Origin: Thermodesulfobacteriota bacterium
GTDB taxonomy: Bacteria; Desulfobacterota_D; UBA1144; Nemesobacterales; JAJCZQ01
Direction of reading: 5' to 3'
NCBI GenBank assembly: GCA_965215275.1
Contig: OZ244044.1
Span: 1,797,561 to 1,861,560 of the forward strand
Length of the DNA: 64,000 nt
In this document: positions 9,654 to 48,397 of the stretch, one piece after another
How the letters are laid out: each line of letters starts with the position of its first letter
How positions within the stretch are numbered: position 1 is the first letter of the stretch
The notes under the pieces: model-generated
What the model was told of the DNA's origin: nothing
Seen by the model: the letters and a program-made list of their open reading frames with translations, nothing else
The model's database searches: none
Program-made: the position numbers and the translations under genes

Positions 9654-11200
9654 GCATGGACAGCGGTACTGTCAGGAACTGGGGATTGGTCGGGCTGTTT
9701 ACCTTTGTAAGCAGGCTGATCGGCTATGTCAGGGACGTTATAATCGTTTATTTTTTCGGTGCTTCATATCAGACCGATGCATTTTACGTTGCGTTCAGGA
9801 TACCTAACCTTCTAAGGCGTCTGTTTGCGGAAGGGTCGATCACGGTAGCGTTCGTACCGATATTTACCAGATATCTGAACAAGGGGAAGAGTTCGGCCAG
9901 GGACGCTCTCAATTCAGTATTTACGGTCCTTTTCCTTGTAGTTTTTGCCGTATCGGTACTGGGAGTGATATTTTCTCCTTTGATAGTAAAGATATTCGCC
10001 TACGGATTTGATGAAAGGACCATGAACCTGGCGGTTGAGTTAAACCGTATCGTGTTCCCCTATATTCTGTTTATATCCCTTGCTTCGCTCGCAATGGGCA
10101 TTTTGAACTCCTTAAAGCACTTTTTTGCCCCGGCTTTTTCCCCGGTCCTTTTCAATCTGGCAATAATAGGGAGCATTGCTCTTTTTTACGGATTTTTTGA
10201 AAAACCGATAACTGCACTTGCGGTGGGCGTCTGTACAGGCGGATTACTTCAACTGGCGATCAACGTACCTTTTCTGATCAGAAAAAGGTACATGTTCAGG
10301 TTCACTGCCAAGCTGAATCATCCTGCGGTAAAAAGCATGGCGCTGCTGATGGTCCCGCAGCTTTTTGGAATAGCCGTTTACAATCTGAACATCATTGTAA
10401 ATACGCAGTACGCCTCGTTTATGCCCAGCGGAACGGTCACGTTCCTGTATCTTTCGGAAAGGCTGATCGAGTTCCCTCTTGGGATCATAGCCGTTTCTAT
10501 TGCCACCGTGATGTTACCGAGACTGTCCCAGGACATTGCAGGTGGTAACATGGATGCCTTCAGAAAAGGTTATGCCTATTCACTGAGGTTAATGATGTTC
10601 ATTATCGTTCCCTGCCTCTTCGGACTGATTGCCCTCAGGGTACCGATCTGTTCAGTGCTTTTTGAAAGAGGGGAGTTTACAAGGGACGAGGTAATATGGA
10701 CGGCACACGCTCTTTTGGGATATTCGGTGGGGTTATGGGCAGTTGGCGGGCTCAGGATCACGGTGCCGGCGTTCTATGCACTGAGGGATACTAGAACGCC
10801 CGTTACGGTGGCGTTCATTGCATTTGTTACAAATGCGGTCCTGGGCTATTTTCTGGGACTTTACCTGTCTCTTTATCAGTTTGGTCTGGCCCTGGCGAGT
10901 TCCATTTCCGCCACTGTAAATTTTCTTTTACTTATATATCTTCTTAACAGGCGTACGAAAAACCTTCTTTCCCGTGGGTCCGCAGGTTTTGCCGTGAAGA
11001 CGGTCGCCTTTTCAGTGATAATGGGCCTTGCGGCATGGAAGGCCTCTCAGTACGTAAACTGGACCGGTAACGAAACGTACTTGAACGTTTTGTTCCTGGT
11101 GCTGATCATTTTATTATCGCTTGCTGTCTACTGTGGTTTGTCAAAAATGTTTAACGTCAGGGAACTGAACGACCTGAGGGAGATGATACCCAGGAAGTAA
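9650..11200 (+). CDS. murJ: lipid II flippase MurJ (MviN)
   Basis: 516 aa, polytopic membrane protein; N-terminal GLVGLFTFVSRLIGYVRDVIIVYFFGAS...AFYVAFRIPNLLRRLFAEGS is the MurJ signature. Confidence 0.9.
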   Translation: MSMDSGTVRNWGLVGLFTFVSRLIGYVRDVIIVYFFGASYQTDAFYVAFRIPNLLRRLFAEGSITVAFVPIFTRYLNKGKSSARDALNSVFTVLFLVVFAVSVLGVIFSPLIVKIFAYGFDERTMNLAVELNRIVFPYILFISLASLAMGILNSLKHFFAPAFSPVLFNLAIIGSIALFYGFFEKPITALAVGVCTGGLLQLAINVPFLIRKRYMFRFTAKLNHPAVKSMALLMVPQLFGIAVYNLNIIVNTQYASFMPSGTVTFLYLSERLIEFPLGIIAVSIATVMLPRLSQDIAGGNMDAFRKGYAYSLRLMMFIIVPCLFGLIALRVPICSVLFERGEFTRDEVIWTAHALLGYSVGLWAVGGLRITVPAFYALRDTRTPVTVAFIAFVTNAVLGYFLGLYLSLYQFGLALASSISATVNFLLLIYLLNRRTKNLLSRGSAGFAVKTVAFSVIMGLAAWKASQYVNWTGNETYLNVLFLVLIILLSLAVYCGLSKMFNVRELNDLREMIPRK

Positions 11201-11244
11201 TGGGGTGGTGCTTGGTGCTGAATTAAGTACTGGTTTTTCGGATC

Positions 11245-11898
11245 ATGAAAAATACCGTTTTTTTAAGTCCCGTACGTCTGGACGAATTAGAGGTCAAATA
11301 TGCAGAGATGCTTGAAGATGATCCTGCCTCAGACTGTTTTGTCCCGCTTTCGCAGCTGTTGATAACGAGAAGAAAAACGGATGAGGCCCTAAAAGTACTC
11401 AGCAGAGGAGTTCGGCACGATAAGGAGAACGTTACGGCAAGGTATTTACTGGGAAAGATATATTTTGAGCGGTGGATGGTAGATAAAGCCAGAAAAGAGC
11501 TTGAGATGGCAGTGAAACTGGACCCTGGCAACATTGATGCTTCAAAAGTGCTGCTGCAGATATATTCAAGCAGGGGAGATCTTGAAACTGCCCTGGACCT
11601 TGCAAGGAACCTGTGTTTCTGCCATCCTAATAACAAAGAGATCAGAGACCTTTTTGATCAGGTCAAAGGGATCGGTCCTGCCGGCAAGGACGGGAGACGG
11701 AACTTCCGTTCGGCTGTTTATCTGAAGGAGAACGAAAGCTGCCAAGGTAACGACCTTGCAACTGAAACGCTTGCGGATTTATATTCTGATCAGGGACATT
11801 ATGATAAGGCGGTTAAAATATTAGATATACTTCTGAAGCAGGATCCATTTAATATGAAACTGTTACAAAAAAGGCAGAAGACAGAAAGCCTTAAATAA
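11245..11898 (+). CDS. tetratricopeptide-repeat (TPR) protein
   Basis: 217 aa with repeated A/L/Y-rich 34-residue TPR-like helical units (LLGKIYFERW..., LLQIYSSRGD..., LADLYSDQGHYDKA). Confidence 0.6.
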   Translation: MKNTVFLSPVRLDELEVKYAEMLEDDPASDCFVPLSQLLITRRKTDEALKVLSRGVRHDKENVTARYLLGKIYFERWMVDKARKELEMAVKLDPGNIDASKVLLQIYSSRGDLETALDLARNLCFCHPNNKEIRDLFDQVKGIGPAGKDGRRNFRSAVYLKENESCQGNDLATETLADLYSDQGHYDKAVKILDILLKQDPFNMKLLQKRQKTESLK

Positions 11899-14304: not shown

Positions 14305-15057
14305 TTGTATCCTAATCTCATTGAATTCAGTTCCTTTCATATCTCATCCTTTTACGTAATGGTGCTGGCAGCCTCTCTTGTTGCTTACTACGTATGTGAG
14401 AAAGACCTGGTCAGAAGAGGGAAAGATAAAAGTACTGCTGATATAGTGCTGATCGCCAGCTTTATAGGCGGGATGGTGGGTGCAAAGCTGCTTTTTTTGT
14501 ATCAGAATGTGGCGTTTTCAGAGGTGGTCCAGGACCCGCTCCGCTATTTTTCGTCGGGCTATACGTTCTTTGGCGGGTTTATCGGGGCTTTACTTATGCT
14601 CTATCTGGTGTCTGTATATAAAAAGGTGAGTTTCTGGTACCTGACCGATATTTCTTCAGCTCCGGTCATTATTGCTTATGGAGTAGGCAGGATCGGGTGC
14701 TTACTCGCTGGAGATGATTACGGGGTACCAACGGATGTGCCTTGGGCAATGTCGTTCCCGAACGGTTCTCCTCCTACTCTGGAAAATGTCCATCCAACCC
14801 AGATCTATGATTCGATCAGTATGCTTATCGTGTTTTACTTCCTGTGGAACCTGAAGAGCAGAGGTCGTGCGACCGGTTTCCTTACTTCACTGACCTTTAT
14901 TGTACTTGGTACACAGAGGTTCTTGATGGAGTTTATAAGGAACACCACACCGAGTTCCGTTTATGGATTATCCCAGGCGCAGCTGATAGCCCTGTCTTTG
15001 GTATGTGCAGGTATAATAAAAATGGGAATTATATACTTAACTATGCAAGATAAATGA
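14305..15057 (+). CDS. lgt: prolipoprotein diacylglyceryl transferase
   Basis: 250 aa membrane protein; the Lgt signature G..GRIGCLLAGDDYG is present. Confidence 0.85.
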   Translation: MYPNLIEFSSFHISSFYVMVLAASLVAYYVCEKDLVRRGKDKSTADIVLIASFIGGMVGAKLLFLYQNVAFSEVVQDPLRYFSSGYTFFGGFIGALLMLYLVSVYKKVSFWYLTDISSAPVIIAYGVGRIGCLLAGDDYGVPTDVPWAMSFPNGSPPTLENVHPTQIYDSISMLIVFYFLWNLKSRGRATGFLTSLTFIVLGTQRFLMEFIRNTTPSSVYGLSQAQLIALSLVCAGIIKMGIIYLTMQDK

Positions 15058-15072
15058 CATTAGCATTGTAAA

Positions 15073-15735
15073 TTATACACGAATGGTTTTTTTCAATTCT
15101 CCGTTATACCACTCCCCGCCCATTTCCTTTTTGATATAATTTATTTTAAAATCAATATTATCTTTTAAATCATCTATCATAAGATCTTTATTATTTTTAT
15201 ATACATCTATATCGTTTTGTCCTACGATCTCACCCATGTCTGGACACAACACGCAAAATTCACCATTTCTATTAGAATCAGAAAAAGAATATATTCTGTA
15301 TTTACCTTTATATGTTTCAATCTGTTTTAAATCCTTCATATAATAATCTGGATTATATTTTTCATTTATCATGTAATCACTCCTCCTTTTACTTTCATAT
15401 TTACGGGTAACTCCTTCTTTTTTATCAAGTTCTTTTATTCTATCTAATTGTAATTCAAATTGATTTATCTGATAATCCTTCGCATCGTCCCTTTCTCTGC
15501 CAGACACAGTAAGTACTCCAACCTTTTTACCATATTCTGCATGCTTAAATTTCCTATGACCTCCAGTTCCTTTTATCTTCACATAACCAGCTTTTTTTAT
15601 TCGCTTAATTAACTCCCGAACAGATATAACTGTTTTTCCTTCATAAATATGCTCAACCAATGTTGGTTTACGCTCATAAATCTGTTGAATTCTTGTTAGT
15701 TTATTATCTTCTTCCATATTTTTTCCTTTTATCAA
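15073..15735 (-). CDS. HicA/YcfA-like domain protein with a ~140-aa C-terminal extension of unknown function
   Basis: Residues ~40-100 (VRELIKRIKKAGYVKIKGTGGHRKFKHAEYGKKVGVLTVSGRE) resemble the HicA toxin fold (G-S/G-H-x-x-f-x-H). The remainder has no recognised domain. Confidence 0.45.
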   Translation of the reverse strand: MIKGKNMEEDNKLTRIQQIYERKPTLVEHIYEGKTVISVRELIKRIKKAGYVKIKGTGGHRKFKHAEYGKKVGVLTVSGRERDDAKDYQINQFELQLDRIKELDKKEGVTRKYESKRRSDYMINEKYNPDYYMKDLKQIETYKGKYRIYSFSDSNRNGEFCVLCPDMGEIVGQNDIDVYKNNKDLMIDDLKDNIDFKINYIKKEMGGEWYNGELKKTIRV

Positions 15736-15800
15736 TTTTCTATATTATTCAATAACCTTTATCCTTATATGTAATAGAACAAATTAAAATCAATTATATT

Positions 15801-17075
15801 TTATTTACAATAACCAAGTCTTTTGTTTTCTTTTATAAGTCCTGATAATGTGAATTTGTTGCTCTTCAATTTATTACAGGGTCCACAAAGTAAAATTCTG
15901 TTCGATATATGGTTTAGTCCACCATCAGAACGTGGAGTGTTATGATCTAATTCAAGATATCTCGGGTCATCAAATTGACGGTTGCAACCCTGACATTTGC
16001 TCTCCTCTTGATCTAACAGATATTTAAGCATTTCTGCTCGAGTCATTTTATGACCTTTAGGTTCATCTATCTTTAATTTGGTTTTGAGAAAAGGAACTGC
16101 CTCTTCACCTTTATCTGTTCTAACTGGTAAATCTGAAGTCCAAGTTATATTTTTTCTAAAAAGCTGATGCTGTGTTCCAGAGTATCCTTTTTTCCTACCT
16201 TTTACTATTAAGCCTTGCTTTTCAAACAAACCAAGAATTACATCCTTAGCCTTATCCCATATATCAATTCCTACCCACTGCCTGTTTAGTTTTTCAGAAG
16301 CTACTAATGTAGTTCCACATCCACAAAAAGGGTCTAATACTATATCTCCTTCATTAGAAGATGCTTTTATTATACGTTCATATAATGCTGGAGGTTTTTG
16401 TGTAGGATAACCTATTCGTTCTTTTGCTACAGCATTTAAACTATCAATTATCCAAGTGTCATGACATATTCTTCCTCTATCTAAATAATACTTATACTCT
16501 TTGCTGTCTATTTTTCTTATACGATATGCTCTACCATCTTTATCTACTTTATCAAAATGGTTGGATTTTTCCTCTCGGTATGGTTCATATTGTGGATTAA
16601 ATATCTTATTTTTGGTTTTACTATAAAACAGTATTATATCATGTTTTTTACTGAACGACTTCTTACTTGCCCCGCCAGTATTGTATTTCCACACTATTTC
16701 ATTAACAAAGTTTTTATATCCAAAAATAGCGTCCATAATGGCTTTTATATAATGACTTGCTGTTGGATCACAGTGCAGATAAATACTTCCATCTTTTCGT
16801 AGTATCCTTTTCATCTCTAATAAACGAACAGCCATGAAACAGACAAACGCACCCATTCCGTCCGAATGAGCATTTCTTGCACTTTCTATAGCTTCCATGA
16901 GTTCTGGAAAATCATCAGTTATTTTATCAACCCACTCTTGATGAACATCCCTGTCCCAAGACCATCTGTCCTGAAAAGAAGCACCAGAAGATAAACTATC
17001 AGGTGTAGCATGAAAATCTCTATTTTTGTTAAAAGGAGGGTCAGTTGCAATTAAATGAACAGATTCGCTGTTCAT
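15801..17075 (-). CDS. beta-class DNA N6-adenine/N4-cytosine methyltransferase fused to a C-terminal HNH zinc-finger nuclease. As annotated this is an N-truncated form; the full-length ORF would start at 17155 if the G9 tract were G10
   Basis: Motif IV DPPF sits at residues 12-15 and motif I LDPFCGCGTT follows it. C-terminus CQGCN...DHN...H...N...CGPCN is an HNH motif. The in-frame upstream sequence encodes the conserved LFHGDNLDFLRA segment but has no start codon in this frame. Confidence 0.8.
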   Translation of the reverse strand: MNSESVHLIATDPPFNKNRDFHATPDSLSSGASFQDRWSWDRDVHQEWVDKITDDFPELMEAIESARNAHSDGMGAFVCFMAVRLLEMKRILRKDGSIYLHCDPTASHYIKAIMDAIFGYKNFVNEIVWKYNTGGASKKSFSKKHDIILFYSKTKNKIFNPQYEPYREEKSNHFDKVDKDGRAYRIRKIDSKEYKYYLDRGRICHDTWIIDSLNAVAKERIGYPTQKPPALYERIIKASSNEGDIVLDPFCGCGTTLVASEKLNRQWVGIDIWDKAKDVILGLFEKQGLIVKGRKKGYSGTQHQLFRKNITWTSDLPVRTDKGEEAVPFLKTKLKIDEPKGHKMTRAEMLKYLLDQEESKCQGCNRQFDDPRYLELDHNTPRSDGGLNHISNRILLCGPCNKLKSNKFTLSGLIKENKRLGYCK

Positions 17076-17133
17076 TGCTCGGAGAAAATCTAAATTGTCT
17101 CCGTGAAATAAAGTGCGATTCTGCCAATTTGAT

Positions 17134-17142
17134 GGGGGGGGG
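17134..17142. repeat. G9 homopolymer (C9 on the coding strand) in the 5' region of the methyltransferase-HNH gene; candidate phase-variation tract
   Basis: With G10 the ATG at 17155 reads MKASTPPPSNWQNRTLFHGDNLDFLRAMNSESVHLIATDPPF in one frame. With G9 that frame stops after ~20 codons. Confidence 0.7.
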
Positions 17143-17167
17143 TGGAGGCTTTCATAGTCGTTTGTTC

Positions 17168-17380
17168 TTAGCGTTTACGCTTTTTGTCTGATCTATTTTT
17201 ATTCAATAACCGAACTTTATCGTTTTCTTTCTTTACTTGATCAGATTGCTTTCTTGGAGTAAATAAAGCACGAGCTATTTGCTCTGGTGAAACATCAACA
17301 GGCGGTAGTAGATAAGCATGCCTCTTGGTCATTGCATCCTCCTTAACAACATTATTACATACTAAATAACCATTAAGCAA
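17168..17380 (-). CDS. small basic protein (70 aa), translationally coupled to the transposase
   Basis: 8-bp overlap with the upstream transposase ORF; Lys/Arg-rich C-terminus. Confidence 0.4.
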   Translation of the reverse strand: MLNGYLVCNNVVKEDAMTKRHAYLLPPVDVSPEQIARALFTPRKQSDQVKKENDKVRLLNKNRSDKKRKR

Positions 17381-18317
17381 TTAAATCTTCATACTTCAAA
17401 CGTTTTCCGATCATTGAAGCGTATATCTCTTGCATCATTTTTTCAGTATCGTATTTCCGCAAGTTGTGCCGATTGGCAAATTCATTAACGTATCTATGTA
17501 GATGTTTAGGACTAATATGGTGAAAGGTCCCGTAATACCCTCTTTTTAGTAAAGCCCAGAAAGATTCTACACCGTTAATATGAGCTTGTTTGTTTACAAA
17601 TTCTCCAACGCTGTGTTTTACCGTCTTATGATTAAAACTCATACCTTCATAGCTCTTATAATCGTCTGTATAAACCGTTGAATTACCATCTACATGTTTA
17701 CCGATAAATTCTTGCAAACTTGATTTGTCGGTATTATTAACAACAGATGCACTTATATTGTTTGTGTTTCTATCTTTTACACCAACTACAGCCGTCTTGC
17801 CAACGACCCCACGACCTGCTTTTAGCTTTTTGCTTGAATGTTTATTTTGTTCAAGACCACCAAAATATGCTTCATCCACTTCTACGGGACCTGACATCTT
17901 ACCACCCATATTCATCCAAGCCTCACGTAACCTTTGAGCCATGAAATAAGCAGATTTCTGTGTTATTTTTAAATCTCTGTAAAGTTTCATGCTGGATACA
18001 CCTTTTAATGAAGTGGACCATAAGAAAATAGCAATAACCCACTTTTGATAACTGATCTTCGATCTTTCCATTAAACTACCAATACGAACACTGAAATTGC
18101 GTCTGCAATCACCACACCAATATGGCATAGGTTTTCCAGAAGGAACTTTACTCACTTTTACACTACCGCATCTAGGACAATGTAAATGCTTGTTATCTTT
18201 TCCCCAACGTTGCTCTTCAAACCACTGTTCTGCAACTTCATTATTAGGGAATTTCTTAAATAACTCTATAAGTGATATTCCTTTACGATAATGTTTTCCA
18301 GGTGCTTTATATGACAT
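17373..18317 (-). CDS. IS1595-family (ISXO2-like) DDE transposase
   Basis: N-terminal zinc ribbon HCPRCGS...CGDCRR, then an ISXO2-like DDE domain (VYTDDYKSYEG..., FHHISPKHLHRYVNEFA). Confidence 0.8.
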   Translation of the reverse strand: MSYKAPGKHYRKGISLIELFKKFPNNEVAEQWFEEQRWGKDNKHLHCPRCGSVKVSKVPSGKPMPYWCGDCRRNFSVRIGSLMERSKISYQKWVIAIFLWSTSLKGVSSMKLYRDLKITQKSAYFMAQRLREAWMNMGGKMSGPVEVDEAYFGGLEQNKHSSKKLKAGRGVVGKTAVVGVKDRNTNNISASVVNNTDKSSLQEFIGKHVDGNSTVYTDDYKSYEGMSFNHKTVKHSVGEFVNKQAHINGVESFWALLKRGYYGTFHHISPKHLHRYVNEFANRHNLRKYDTEKMMQEIYASMIGKRLKYEDLIA

Positions 18318-18450
18318 ACTATTTATCCTCTTGATTATTGATTTTATAGTATTATACTATCATACAAACCTTGCATAGTCAAGTATATAATTCCCATAAA
18401 AATAGTACTGATATCATCAGGAAAGAAAGAGGAAAGGGCAGGTTGATCAT

Positions 18451-19776
18451 TTGAGAATAATAATAGTAGGTGCCGGACAGGTGGGGCTTTTTTTAGCAGG
18501 TGAGCTGTGTAACGATCATGACGTGGTGGTTATCGAGAACGACAAGGAAAGGTCACTGCATATAAAAGACAGCCTTGACGTGCTGTCCATTCACGGCGAG
18601 GGGGACGACCCAAAGGTCCTGGCAGAGGCCGGACTGGAAGAAGCTGACGTATTTCTTGCCGTAAGTGGTGACGACAGGGCCAATATACTGTCTTCACTGC
18701 TTGCTGACTTGATGAATTTAAAAAGCGTGGTTTGCAGAATAAGGAACAAGGACTATGTGGAACATACCAGCCTTCTGAAAAGTAACAGGATACACGTTGT
18801 TAACCCCAGCGAGATAATCTCGTCCAAGTTCGCTGACCTTGTAAGTCATCCTTTTGCATTGAGGACCGAACTGTTTGGAGAGAACAACGAAGTTGAACTG
18901 TTCAAACTCAGGGTGGAAGAAGGTGCGGAAGTTGCAAATAAAATGCTCAGAGACCTTGAACCTGCCAGTTCCTGGATATTTGTGGGCGTGTCACAGAATG
19001 GGAAAATGAAAGTCCCTAAGGGCGACACGGTACTGTATTCTGGAGATTATGTCTTTGCACTTGGCGATCCCGGCGTCATACAAAGATTAAAAAAGCTCTT
19101 TGATCTGGGGGAGGACAGTATAGGTTCTGCAATAATAGTCGGGGGAGGAAGACTTGGAAGAACGGTTGCGGCCACCTTGTTAAAAAATAAAATAAAGGTC
19201 AAGATAATAGAGAGTGATCCCACCAGGGCGGACCTGGTCGCGGAGGACCTCCTTGGAGCTGCGGTGTTCAAAGGCGATGCAACGAACGCTGAGTGCTTAA
19301 AGGAAGCCGGCGTTGAATCAACTGATTATCTGGCCGCTCTGACCGGAGATGACGAAAAGAACGTTTTAAGCGCCCTTCTTGCAAAAAACCTTGGTGTAAA
19401 GCAAACGACCGTGCTCTATACGAAGCCGGATTACATAGGCGTGCTTGAGGCAATTGGCGTTAACAGGGCGGTAAGTGTAAGACATGCGATCGCGAACGAG
19501 GTCCTGAGCCTGCTGCATATCAGAGGAGTGGAACATATTACGCTTCTGGAAGAGGGAAAAGGCGAGGTGCTGGAATTTAAAATCCATGAAGGGTCAGAAG
19601 TTATAGGGAAAAAGTTAAAAAATATTGATCTTCCAGAAGATGCCATAGTAGGTATCTGTATCAGAGAGGGTAAGATACAGATACCCAGAGGAGAGTTCTT
19701 CCTGCGACGCGACGATCGTTTAATTGTCTTCACGCTTCCCAATGCTGTAAAAAAGGTGGAACAGATACTTGGATAG
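18451..19776 (+). CDS. trkA: Trk potassium uptake system NAD-binding protein TrkA
   Basis: 441 aa; two tandem TrkA-N (Rossmann, IIVGAGQVG / IVGGGRLG) plus TrkA-C domains. Confidence 0.85.
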   Translation: MRIIIVGAGQVGLFLAGELCNDHDVVVIENDKERSLHIKDSLDVLSIHGEGDDPKVLAEAGLEEADVFLAVSGDDRANILSSLLADLMNLKSVVCRIRNKDYVEHTSLLKSNRIHVVNPSEIISSKFADLVSHPFALRTELFGENNEVELFKLRVEEGAEVANKMLRDLEPASSWIFVGVSQNGKMKVPKGDTVLYSGDYVFALGDPGVIQRLKKLFDLGEDSIGSAIIVGGGRLGRTVAATLLKNKIKVKIIESDPTRADLVAEDLLGAAVFKGDATNAECLKEAGVESTDYLAALTGDDEKNVLSALLAKNLGVKQTTVLYTKPDYIGVLEAIGVNRAVSVRHAIANEVLSLLHIRGVEHITLLEEGKGEVLEFKIHEGSEVIGKKLKNIDLPEDAIVGICIREGKIQIPRGEFFLRRDDRLIVFTLPNAVKKVEQILG

Positions 19777-46082: not shown

Positions 46083-46345
46083 GAAAAACAGTGTAAATAC
46101 AAGGGGCGTAGTCCCAATGTCGTTGTTGTATTTTGGATTTAATTCAAGGAAAGTCTGGAAAAGGGACTGCCAGATCTTGTGATAGAAAGTCTTACTTGAT
46201 ATGTTACTTTCGTGCTAAAAAGATCCGTTCTCCCATCATTGCTCCAAATTTTATGATCTCTTTATCCGAAAGGAATGTCTCTGGTGTAACAGTTTCCACG
46301 TGAAATCCAGCATCGCGTATTCTGTCTATGTAATCTTTTCCGCAT
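46083..46345. repeat. direct repeat copy 1 (3' end of the methyltransferase gene plus its downstream region)
   Basis: ~85% identical to 47213-47476 by eye, sharing AATGTCGTTGTTGTATTTTGGATTTAATTCAAGGAAA...TTACTTTCGTGCTAAAAAGATCCG. Confidence 0.7.
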
Positions 46346-46927
46346 AATCGGACATGAAGACATTCACCAAAGGTTTTGAGGCGTTCTTCAGGGTCAGTTA
46401 TTGATGGGTCCTCAAATGTTTTTTGAGTTAAGATCGGGACTAGTATTACAGCCATGCCGTCATCCTTTAATACTCTGTACAGTTCACTTATAGCTTTTTT
46501 ATCATCCTGAATATGTTCCAGTACATGACTGCAGATGATCAGATCGAAAGACCGGTCTGGATATCTGATGTTCGTTATATCCATTTCTACCATCACGTCC
46601 CGGTCACTTAGACCAGCGGATAAGTATCCTTTACCAAAATATTCCTTTAACTTTTGTGCAAGGCACACGGCTGGTGCGATATCAAGCACTTTGATAGATG
46701 GAATGGGGGGGGGGATATGTCTTTAAAAGGAAAAGGTATATCAAGCGATGTCTTTCATAGGAACCGCATGTCGGGCATTTAGCATTTTTACGACTGTTAA
46801 TGCGATTATTAATGGGAAGAAACTCTCTGGACGATCTTTTGCATACTGGGCAATACATTTCTTTTCCACAATGATAATATATTGCTTTTAGAACACTAAT
46901 GAAATATGTACGAATAAGGTGAAGCAT
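46204..46927 (-). CDS. zinc-ribbon + class I SAM-dependent methyltransferase (Methyltransf_11-like), interrupted by a G10 tract; current state frameshifted (OFF)
   Basis: N-terminal ORF (CPVC...CPTC) ends in ...LKTYPPPHSIYQSA* just after the tract. The C-terminal ORF carries the methyltransferase core (DLIICSHVLEHIQD). One fewer C would join the two frames. Confidence 0.7.
46705..46714. repeat. G10 homopolymer inside the methyltransferase coding region; candidate slipped-strand phase-variation tract
   Basis: GGAATGGGGGGGGGGATATG: the tract encodes PPP and shifts frame directly. Confidence 0.75.
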
Positions 46928-47212: not shown

Positions 47213-47476
47213 GGTAAGGACCGTAGTTCCAATGTCGTTGTTGTATTTTGGATTTAATTCAAGGAAAATTTGGAAAAGGGACTGCCAGATCTTATGATGG
47301 AAAGTCTCACTTGATATGTTACTTTCGTGCTAAAAAGATCCGTGTTCCCTTAAATATTCCAAATTTTATGATTTTTTATCCGAAAGGAATATATCTGGTA
47401 TAATAGTTTCTATGTGAAATCTAGCATCGCATATCCTGTCTATATAATTTTCCCCGCATATCCGAAATTATTTCTT
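47213..47476. repeat. direct repeat copy 2 (decayed duplicate of the methyltransferase 3' end), abutting the GT2 start codon
   Basis: See copy 1; carries indels and substitutions. Confidence 0.7.
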
Positions 47477-48397
47477 ATGATAACAGTAGTAATCTGCACC
47501 TATAACAGAAGAAGTTATTTAAAGAAGGCAATAGATAGCATTATCAACCAAACCTTTGACCCTGACCTGTATGAACTGATCATAGTTGATAACAACTCTA
47601 CCGATGGAACAAAAGATTTTGTTTTAAACAATTACAGTCACTCCAGAGTAAAGGTAAGGTATTTGCATGAACCAAACCAGGGACTTTCACATTGTCGGAA
47701 TACGGGTCTTCGGAACGCAAGTTTTGAATATATAGCATATATTGACGATGATGGGATTGCTTATCCTGACTGGCTTGAAAATATGGCAAAAGGGATAAAG
47801 AATCAGAATGAGAAATTTGCTGGAATAACAGGTGCGATATTTCCTATATGGGAAATTCCACGACCAAGATGGCTTTTAGATTTAGATAGGTTGACTATGT
47901 TTTACTCAATATATTACCCTGACAAAAGGACTGTTATTGGTTACGGTTATGTTTTTGGCGGAAACATGGTGTGGAAAAAAAGTCTTTTAATAGAATGTGG
48001 TGGATTTAATACAAAATTAGGAAGAGTAAAAAACAATCTGATATCAGGAGAAGAAAGTCTTACTGCTGAGAAAATAGAAAAAAAAGGATATGAATTCATA
48101 TACGACCCAAAGATGAGAATAAAGCACCATATTCACAAATCCAGAATAAGTATAATGTGGTTAATTAAAAGATCTTTCTGGGGAGGTTATTCACGTATCG
48201 CAATGGAAAATATAAAAACAAAAAAAAGCATTTTAGCAAAGTTCATACAATCGTTTAAGGAGATTAAAAAAGCACTTTATAACCTTGGGTCAGTTCCTAA
48301 ATCCATTATATTTGAACCGAGGTATTATTTTTTGATTAAAATAGTTGACGCTGTAGATTCATTAGGAAGACTCTATGCTTTAGTAATAATAAAGTAA
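47477..48397 (+). CDS. family-2 glycosyltransferase (copy A; the ORF-track start at 47414 is probably an upstream extension)
   Basis: MITVVICTYNRRSYLKKAIDSIINQT...IVDNNSTDGT is the GT2 N-terminus. Close paralog of 51616-52542. Confidence 0.8.
   Translation: MITVVICTYNRRSYLKKAIDSIINQTFDPDLYELIIVDNNSTDGTKDFVLNNYSHSRVKVRYLHEPNQGLSHCRNTGLRNASFEYIAYIDDDGIAYPDWLENMAKGIKNQNEKFAGITGAIFPIWEIPRPRWLLDLDRLTMFYSIYYPDKRTVIGYGYVFGGNMVWKKSLLIECGGFNTKLGRVKNNLISGEESLTAEKIEKKGYEFIYDPKMRIKHHIHKSRISIMWLIKRSFWGGYSRIAMENIKTKKSILAKFIQSFKEIKKALYNLGSVPKSIIFEPRYYFLIKIVDAVDSLGRLYALVIIK

Follow-up and report, generated by a model that had tools for sequence, protein, structure and literature searches.

What is a gene doing in a bacterial genome when it joins a DNA methyltransferase to a nuclease in one chain, has no restriction gene beside it and opens with a start codon that does not read into its own body? 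Such a gene lies on the minus strand, from position 15801 to 17155, of a 64,000-nucleotide stretch of a Thermodesulfobacteriota genome (GenBank assembly GCA_965215275.1, contig OZ244044.1, positions 1,797,561 to 1,861,560 of the forward strand), here called the window. It encodes a beta-class amino-methyltransferase (MTase) followed by an HNH nuclease, and it is the cargo of a 3,372-bp transposon of the IS1595 family that is inserted in the 3' end of lgt. The reading favored here, to which we give a probability of about 0.6, is that the gene would be a phase-variable, single-chain restriction-modification (RM)-like module carried by an IS1595 transporter insertion sequence (tIS). An RM-like role is suggested because there is no partner gene, the target recognition domain (TRD) is hypervariable, the protein resembles Type III Mod and the gene bears the marks of phase variation.

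The fusion protein and its carrier transposon

The original prediction, which was made from the letters of the DNA alone, described one chain in which a beta-class amino-MTase is followed by an HNH domain at the C-terminus. Pfam, alignments and motifs agree with this architecture, and the strand is corrected to minus. The MTase domain occupies 16242 to 17060. Pfam N6_N4_Mtase (PF01555) matches residues 6-278 of the 424-amino-acid open reading frame (ORF) listed at this locus with an E-value of 2.3e-48 (165.5 bits, cut-off 26.7), and adenine-MTase models of NCBIfam match the body of the protein. The permuted motif order of the beta class is present as predicted: DPPF (motif IV; 17031-17042, residues 12-15), a variable region at about residues 160-232, and then DPFCGCGTT (motif I; 16308-16334, residues 248-256), all in 424-residue numbering. 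In a sequence search of the PDB, M.MboIIA (1g60) matched at 3.6e-22, and M.BceJIV, RsrI, CcrM and Type III Mod subunits were matched as well. An AlphaFold (AF2) model of the whole protein, built from 45 sequences, reached a predicted local distance difference test score (pLDDT) of 79 and a predicted template-modeling score of 0.71. In Foldseek, its residues ~1-300 superpose on beta-class N6-adenine (N6A) MTases, including 1g60 (template-modeling score 0.81; M.MboIIA) and RsrI. The DPPF motif and the closest relatives, MboIIA, RsrI, CcrM and Mod, suggest that the enzyme is specific for N6-adenine.

The family alignment is highly conserved in its N- and C-terminal parts and hypervariable in the middle (alignment columns ~200-340). 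Because the TRD of beta-class MTases sits there, this middle, at ~16380-16598 on the minus strand, is assigned as the TRD. Two genomes carry two paralogues each (L004/L044 and L015/L060, where L-numbers denote loci of relatives); the 5' and 3' thirds of the paired genes are 87-93% identical in DNA and the middles are unalignable. As sequences, these pairs indicate TRD swapping, which would give two specificities per cell. Between the MTase and the HNH lies a linker, VRTDKGEEAVPFLKTKLKIDEPKG (16053-16124, minus strand), which is near-invariant in the family, where its conserved motif is RTDDGEEAVPFLKTKLKVDEPKG. The low-confidence segments of the model, residues 316-329 and 349-360, are linker.

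The HNH (His-Me finger) nuclease domain, at 15855-15995 on the minus strand, possesses two CxxC zinc pairs. Pfam HNH (PF01844) matches residues 361-407 above threshold (E-value 2.4e-9, 37.6 bits against a cut-off of 21.4). The predicted CxxC...DHN...CxxC pattern has all of its key residues, in the form CQGC...DHN...N...CGPC-N, with CQGC at 15984-15995, DHN at 15939-15947 and CGPC at 15876-15887. A degenerate HNH, which the original prediction had considered, is not what alignment reveals: the metal-binding and catalytic residues C, C, D, H, N, N, C, C and N are invariant in 45 homologues. Both the MTase and the HNH motif matches are far beyond chance. The best NCBIfam model for the tail is the IscB/Cas9d HNH region, and the matches of a PDB sequence search with the tail alone were a Cas9 and an HNH protein. 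The last 130 residues were also modeled separately (pLDDT 77); this model matches exclusively HNH nucleases, namely the HNH domains of McrA, Cas9, the Gme-HNH nickase and Cap5, with E-values that are weak, as is usual for so small a domain. Neither the literature nor the PDB search brought up a close homologue with characterized activity.

The transposon that carries the gene extends from 15024 to 18395 and holds four genes, all on the minus strand: a transposase, a small ORF, the MTase-HNH fusion and an ORF with a HicA domain. The transposase (17373-18317, 314 amino acids) is composed of a zinc ribbon and a DDE domain. It matches Pfam DDE_Tnp_IS1595 at 2.8e-40 and NCBIfam transpos_IS1595 with 183 bits (cut-off 75), and it clusters with the transposases that adjoin MTase-HNH genes in 29 other loci. 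The ends are 26-nt terminal inverted repeats (IRs), the left one, GGGAATTATATACTTAACTATGCAAG, at 15024-15049 on the plus strand and the right one at 18370-18395 on the minus strand. The repeat search reported a 28-nt inverted repeat, 15022-15049 against 18370-18397, that is 96% complementary. The 15-mer core GGGAATTATATACTT is found at both element ends and nowhere else in the 64 kb, and none of 100 shuffles reached three matches. The IRs end in GGG...CCC and are homologous to the GGGRATTATA.. IRs of related elements. Directly outside of them lies the same 8-bp target-site duplication (TSD), ATAAAAAT, at 15016-15023 and 18396-18403.

The insertion can be undone in silico. Deletion of 15024-18403 produces a 253-amino-acid lgt ORF, whose end at 18444 is separated by 6 nt from the trkA start at 18451. 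In the present arrangement, the last 14 codons of lgt (14305-15057) are replaced by 11 codons read from the left IR, and the displaced original 3' end is visible at 18404-18444, just upstream of trkA. The element is present in a single copy within the 64 kb.

The homopolymer tract and the family of relatives

The gene has two candidate starts. The ORF listing gives 424 amino acids at 15801-17075, starting from an internal ATG at 17075, and the public annotation calls this ORF alone (P0001). An ATG at 17155 opens the peptide MKASTPPHQIG...* in one frame, and the body of the protein, ...HPPPSNWQNRTLFHGDNLDFLRAMNSES..., lies in another and reads in frame to the stop at 15801-15803. The body frame has no start codon ahead of the methionine at 17075 and continues for 446 codons without a stop. 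Upstream of that ATG, in the same frame and with no start codon of its own, is the N-terminal sequence PNWxNRTLFHGDNLxFLRA. The reconstructed N-terminus was aligned with 19 and then with 44 homologues, in which this sequence is nearly invariant. Because the N-terminus is conserved among the homologues, the 424-amino-acid ORF is a truncated reading of a gene of ~451 amino acids. The full extent of the gene rests on the translations, the homologue alignment and Pfam.

A homopolymer, C9 on the coding strand and G9 on the plus strand (17134-17142), at about codons 5-8, separates the ATG at 17155 from the conserved body. As a simple-sequence repeat within the 5' part of the coding region, it determines the reading frame. 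The original prediction had counted this run as G10. Because the tract is C9 and not C10, the ATG at 17155 is out of frame, or OFF; C10 or C7 would be ON, and one added C would join both frames into a 451-amino-acid protein. Runs of 8-13 G or C residues recur within the first few codons of relatives, just 5' of PNW. The loci with such tracts belong to several phyla, and the tract is translated as poly-Pro or poly-Gly. The frames of ten coding tracts were read by hand: three are ON (L053, L049 and L170) and seven are OFF (the window, L001, L024, L026, L037, L052 and L070), a ratio near the 1:2 expected if tract length is random or drifting. L049 and L070 have near-identical upstream DNA and differ as G8 and G9. 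Because the tract recurs at one position with an ON:OFF ratio near 1:2, C9 is read as a slipped-strand switch, and the sequence fits an ON/OFF switch that is currently OFF. At two loci the tract is located ~70 nt upstream of the start codon, outside of the coding region (G10 at L179:4934-4943 and C9 at L074:9926-9934). This position suggests that some members may be switched through promoter spacing, not frame.

The family is large. In a word-indexed search, the best 120 of at least 8,000 candidates all carry both Pfam domains, with 52-75% identity and lengths of 420-560 amino acids. A search with the linker and HNH module found 265 clusters (50%-identity representatives) at an E-value of 1e-10 or below, and the module is always C-terminal. 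None of 10 clusters carries a name in the databases. In GTDB, taken as one genome per species, 580 contig stretches encode relatives; the taxonomy described here is that of the best 80 of these, at 50-66% identity. They spread over at least 10 phyla and include Gamma- and Alphaproteobacteria, Nitrospirota, Nitrospinota, Rhodothermales, Cytophagales, Chloroflexota, Acidobacteriota, Gemmatimonadota, Thermodesulfobacteriota, Spirochaetota and one Nitrososphaerales archaeon. Nearly all of the best 80 are metagenome-assembled genomes (MAGs) whose names or origins point to sponges (Poriferi-, Porisulfidus, Arenicellales, sponge bin labels). Many metagenome matches are on the contig sets MKWU01, LXNI01 and LXNJ01, which we take to be sponge metagenomes. 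The taxa also figure in genome notes on sponges "and associated microbial metagenome sequences", and RM genes are enriched and laterally transferred in sponge symbionts (PMC8163846).

The archaeal relative (L034, match 10001-11278 in a Nitrososphaerales MAG) is a full-length MTase-HNH gene, 60% identical, on a 592-kb contig, where a 31-nt inverted repeat of another kind lies on either side of it. A bacteria-to-archaea transfer or a binning error may account for it. A plasmid-borne family was considered and ruled out, as the full-length fusion was not found among the plasmids of PLSDB.

The surroundings of the relatives were surveyed by all-versus-all clustering of ~1,600 neighboring ORFs from the best 80 genome loci, and 48 metagenome loci were added. 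The one recurrent neighbor of the fusion gene in the genome loci is the IS1595 transposase family, which abuts it in 29 of the 80 genome loci and in ~11 of the 48 metagenome loci. An automated scan detected GGGRATTATA-type IRs around the transposase and fusion unit in at least 17 loci, and perfect 8-bp TSDs are present at L005, L009, L029, L035, L037, L040 and L081. In one MAG, a 2,484-bp unit of transposase and fusion is found on two contigs (L029 and L031) that are 99.9% identical over the unit. Both copies are bounded by CGGGATTATAACGCC..TTGACAA repeats and have different 8-bp duplications, CTTTTGTT and CGTTTACC. In all, eight related units have perfect 8-bp TSDs. Eleven units are convergent, and a tandem layout is also found. 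At L019 (339-1886), 49-nt GGGGAATTAT-type inverted repeats surround the MTase-HNH gene alone, a transposase-less derivative that may be mobilisable in trans.

No separate restriction gene is located near the fusion, as the original prediction had stated for this locus; the same is true of ~130 related loci. Regular co-occurrence with a separate restriction endonuclease, which it had offered as the sign of a conventional system, was likewise not seen in the neighbor surveys. The res gene, which encodes a superfamily 2 helicase-nuclease, is absent from the window element and is not a conserved neighbor in the 80 loci.

Two further ORFs of the element are particular to this copy. The HicA-domain ORF (15073-15735, minus strand, 220 amino acids) matches Pfam HicA_toxin at residues 40-93 (2.8e-7, 31 bits, cut-off 27). 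Its C-terminal half, ~125 amino acids, has no family match, and no HicB antitoxin is recognizable near it. It counts as an additional passenger that this copy alone possesses. The small ORF (17168-17380, minus strand) lies between the transposase and the MTase and encodes 70 amino acids, or 54 from an internal ATG, with a basic C-terminus (...SDKKRKR). It overlaps the transposase stop, ends 12 nt before the MTase ATG, and has neither a Pfam match nor relatives in other loci. In other elements the transposase stop usually abuts the MTase start, with no small ORF between them. Both ORFs were rejected as conserved element parts, having no relatives in other elements. A promoter-like site, TTGACT, 17 nt and TG-TAGTAT (an extended -10), lies at 18354-18382 on the minus strand. 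It is a consensus match only, has its -35 inside the right IR and would read into the transposase; related elements also have the TTGAC(A/T) hexamer conserved in their IRs.

A second long tract is present elsewhere in the window, G10 on the plus strand and C10 on the gene strand, at 46705-46714. It is located at the junction of two minus-strand ORFs, an 81-amino-acid zinc-ribbon-like ORF (46682-46927) and a 161-amino-acid class-I S-adenosylmethionine-dependent-methyltransferase-like ORF (46204-46689). This locus looks like another frameshift or phase-variable split gene, and because a second long tract occurs in the same window, long tracts are considered a feature of this genome. The split gene adjoins a GT2 glycosyltransferase gene (47414-48397) in a surface-polysaccharide cluster. 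It is flanked by two copies of a ~150-nt repeat, at 46133-46303 and 47248-47403 on the plus strand, which translate to near-identical peptides (MDLIQGK.GKGTARS.D.KS.LICYFRAKKIR...).

Proposed mechanism and competing explanations

In the favored reading, the element would be a 3.37-kb tIS that inserted into the lgt 3' end with the fusion protein as its conserved cargo. The central TRD of the MTase would set the sequence specificity, and the conserved linker would tether the MTase to an intact zinc-HNH. The poly-C tract just after the start codon would gate full-length translation, with C9 as the OFF state and replication slippage to C10 or C7 turning the gene ON. In the ON state, the enzyme would methylate host sites, and the HNH is predicted to nick or cut DNA without the mark, at or near sites specified by the TRD. 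One TRD would thus serve both activities, as in the single-chain Type IIG/IIC enzymes. The host would gain anti-phage activity through restriction of foreign DNA, and the transposon would benefit through addiction and retention. Switching by phase variation would keep the burden of self-toxicity low; like TRD exchange, such variation is typical of costly RM genes, Type III mod among them.

Several observations weigh against this reading. An exact-flank pattern search of metagenomes for the window element with another tract length gave 0 matches, and the frameshift could be decay or a homopolymer assembly error. A single HNH usually nicks DNA; therefore, double-strand restriction would need dimerization. 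In PADLOC, the generic MTase_II and MTase_III models match, and there is no match to a model for the fusion or its neighbors. About 50 of the 80 loci (~60%) are solitary and have neither transposase nor IRs, and in a Pfam scan of 100 immediate neighbors of solitary copies, the matches were to assorted housekeeping families and never to a restriction enzyme. In pairwise comparisons of 22 complete units, identity is 30-65% for the transposases and 49-92% for the conserved cargo parts, with a rho of -0.14, so that co-divergence of transposase and cargo is not seen. Nor do the transposases fall into separate lineages according to a tandem or convergent layout. Because the cargo is uncorrelated with the transposase and more conserved, it seems to have been repeatedly captured or exchanged, or to be mobile by itself. 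With a solitary majority and no co-divergence, the transposon is therefore one vehicle and not the whole story.

The alternative that survives best, although we consider it unlikely, is that the gene in the window is a dead pseudogene or an assembly error. The tract would then have no regulatory meaning, and the product would be at most the 424 amino acids from the ATG at 17075. This explanation overlaps with the OFF state of the favored reading, and it accounts for the out-of-frame start codon and for the public annotation of the 424-amino-acid ORF alone. Seven of the ten tract-bearing loci are out of frame, some relatives are clearly split pseudogenes (L003 and L030), and homopolymers are error-prone in sequencing. 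However, the body runs through its 446 codons without a stop and with all motifs intact, and long G/C tracts stand at exactly this position in unrelated hosts with the ON:OFF ratio given above. The G10 tract splits another gene of the window. In the structural model, the truncated product would also be without a strand and a helix that are conserved at the N-terminus of the MTase core.

The solitary copies bring up an alternative that we regard as improbable, a homing-type selfish gene. Alleles or IS1595 elements that lack the gene and are unmethylated would be cleaved by the HNH and would receive a copy of the gene on repair, and the carrier genome would be protected by the gene's own methylase; IS1595 would be the landing site or vehicle. 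In its favor, about 50 of the 80 loci hold the gene alone, inserted without IRs between unrelated housekeeping genes. It would also accommodate a cargo that is much more conserved than the transposases, uncorrelated with them and found in both tandem and convergent orientations to them, and that keeps 50-66% identity over at least 10 phyla and one archaeon. The HNH is, in addition, a classic homing-endonuclease fold. However, no conserved insertion site or flanking homology is seen, movement by the transposase is proven in many cases by complete units that have both IRs and TSDs, and a variable TRD speaks against a fixed homing site.

A related proposal, which we rate just as low, is an autonomous selfish module that would be a "protein-guided" counterpart of TnpB/IscB. 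The TRD would read a DNA word, the methylase would mark self, and the HNH would cut unmarked DNA, resulting in spread and retention. The unmarked DNA would be element-free alleles, incoming DNA and daughter chromosomes without the element. Such a module would hop between diverged IS1595 carriers and bare sites across phyla and archaea in sponge holobionts, and the homopolymer would keep it mostly silent.

It is very doubtful that the HNH serves transposition itself, in second-strand cleavage or target nicking for the DDE transposase in a TnsA-like manner, with the MTase marking or choosing the target. The fusion gene lies immediately downstream of the transposase gene, with stop and start codons that often overlap or abut (L029 and L170), and Tn7 TnsA is a precedent for an accessory nuclease. 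However, most IS1595 elements lack the fusion, including the extra transposase-only IS1595 copies in the genomes of L029 and L058, most fusion genes have no nearby transposase, and 11 of the units are convergent. A mostly-OFF switch would also disable transposition. Finally, the phage-type MTase-HNH that the original prediction had named, which would be an anti-restriction methylase with a packaging or homing HNH and would sit in a prophage remnant, is effectively refuted: phages often encode relatives of the MTase part alone, at 35-42% identity (Marinitoga MPV1, Streptomyces phages), but none of 50,697 phage records covers at least 80% of the protein, 2.9 million IMG/VR contigs hold just two distant full-length matches, and the window element has no phage genes and is bounded by IS ends.

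Comparison with known systems

The ingredients of the favored reading are already known: tIS elements, MTase-nuclease fusions, HNH restriction enzymes and phase-variable methylases. In the literature, no account was found of a beta-MTase-HNH as IS1595 cargo, of its homopolymer switch or of its cross-phylum spread in sponge symbionts, and an earlier mention of methylase passengers is possible. If the mechanism is true, a compact one-gene RM unit of ~450 amino acids travels as the payload of a minimal transposon. This would join three subjects: RM systems as selfish elements, the "passenger" genes of IS, and phase variation. It would also provide a concrete route for the lateral exchange of RM genes among diverse sponge symbionts, a pattern known until now from statistics alone (PMC8163846). 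With dozens of natural TRD variants on one constant scaffold that bears a tethered HNH, the family is a possible source of nicking, cleavage and methylation specificities. With both ON and OFF alleles in long-read MAGs, the methylation motifs are directly testable from existing kinetics data.

The best sequence and fold matches of residues ~1-300 are M.MboIIA, M.RsrI, CcrM and M.BceJIV, which also have the DPPF/Y motif IV before motif I. These enzymes have no nuclease domain, and their identity to the fusion is just ~20-25%. Type III Mod proteins (EcoP15I Mod and the phasevarions) share the beta-class N6A fold, the conserved ends and a swappable central TRD, and the phase-variable mod genes share a simple-sequence repeat in the 5' coding region, which in mod genes gives ON/OFF switching. 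In mod genes of Neisseria and Haemophilus, tetranucleotide repeats are typical, whereas the repeat here is a G/C homopolymer. Type III Mod works with a Res helicase-nuclease partner; here no such gene lies nearby, and the MTase is fused to an HNH. Lacking a res gene, the fusion does not belong to Type III.

McrA, the HNH domains of Cas9 and IscB, Gme-HNH, phage nicking HNHs and the Type II HNH restriction enzymes KpnI and Hpy99I have the same CxxC...DH...N...CxxC-N ββα-Me core. Other zinc HNHs are targeted by a guide RNA, a 5-methylcytosine reader or their own DNA-binding domain, whereas the TRD of the MTase is the sole candidate for targeting here. TnpB and IscB (OMEGA, IS200/IS605) are, like the fusion, non-transposase nucleases encoded by transposons and are thought to favor retention, a likeness that is an analogy only. 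The HNH of the fusion scores best against the IscB model of NCBIfam. Unlike these nucleases, the fusion lacks a RuvC domain and a guide RNA (an Rfam search of the window gave no RNA genes), and it belongs to another transposon family.

The tIS of the IS1595 family is a concept of ISfinder and TnCentral (Siguier et al. 2009). The window element has the zinc-ribbon and DDE transposase of such elements, their short IRs and 8-bp TSD, and passengers between the transposase and one IR. An MTase-HNH fusion was not found described as a passenger of such elements, and the cargo here is more conserved than the transposase. The concept is documented for IS1595, and according to TnCentral the class is restricted to the IS1595 and IS66 families (bioRxiv 10.1101/2021.05.26.445724).

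Type IIG/IIC enzymes (MmeI, BcgI-type) are also composed of a nuclease and an MTase in one chain with no separate restriction endonuclease. In those enzymes as in the fusion, a variable TRD is expected to direct both activities, and the domain architecture seen here is compatible with this. In Type IIG/IIC enzymes, an N-terminal PD-(D/E)XK nuclease is joined to a gamma-class MTase, whereas the fusion joins a beta-class MTase to a C-terminal HNH.

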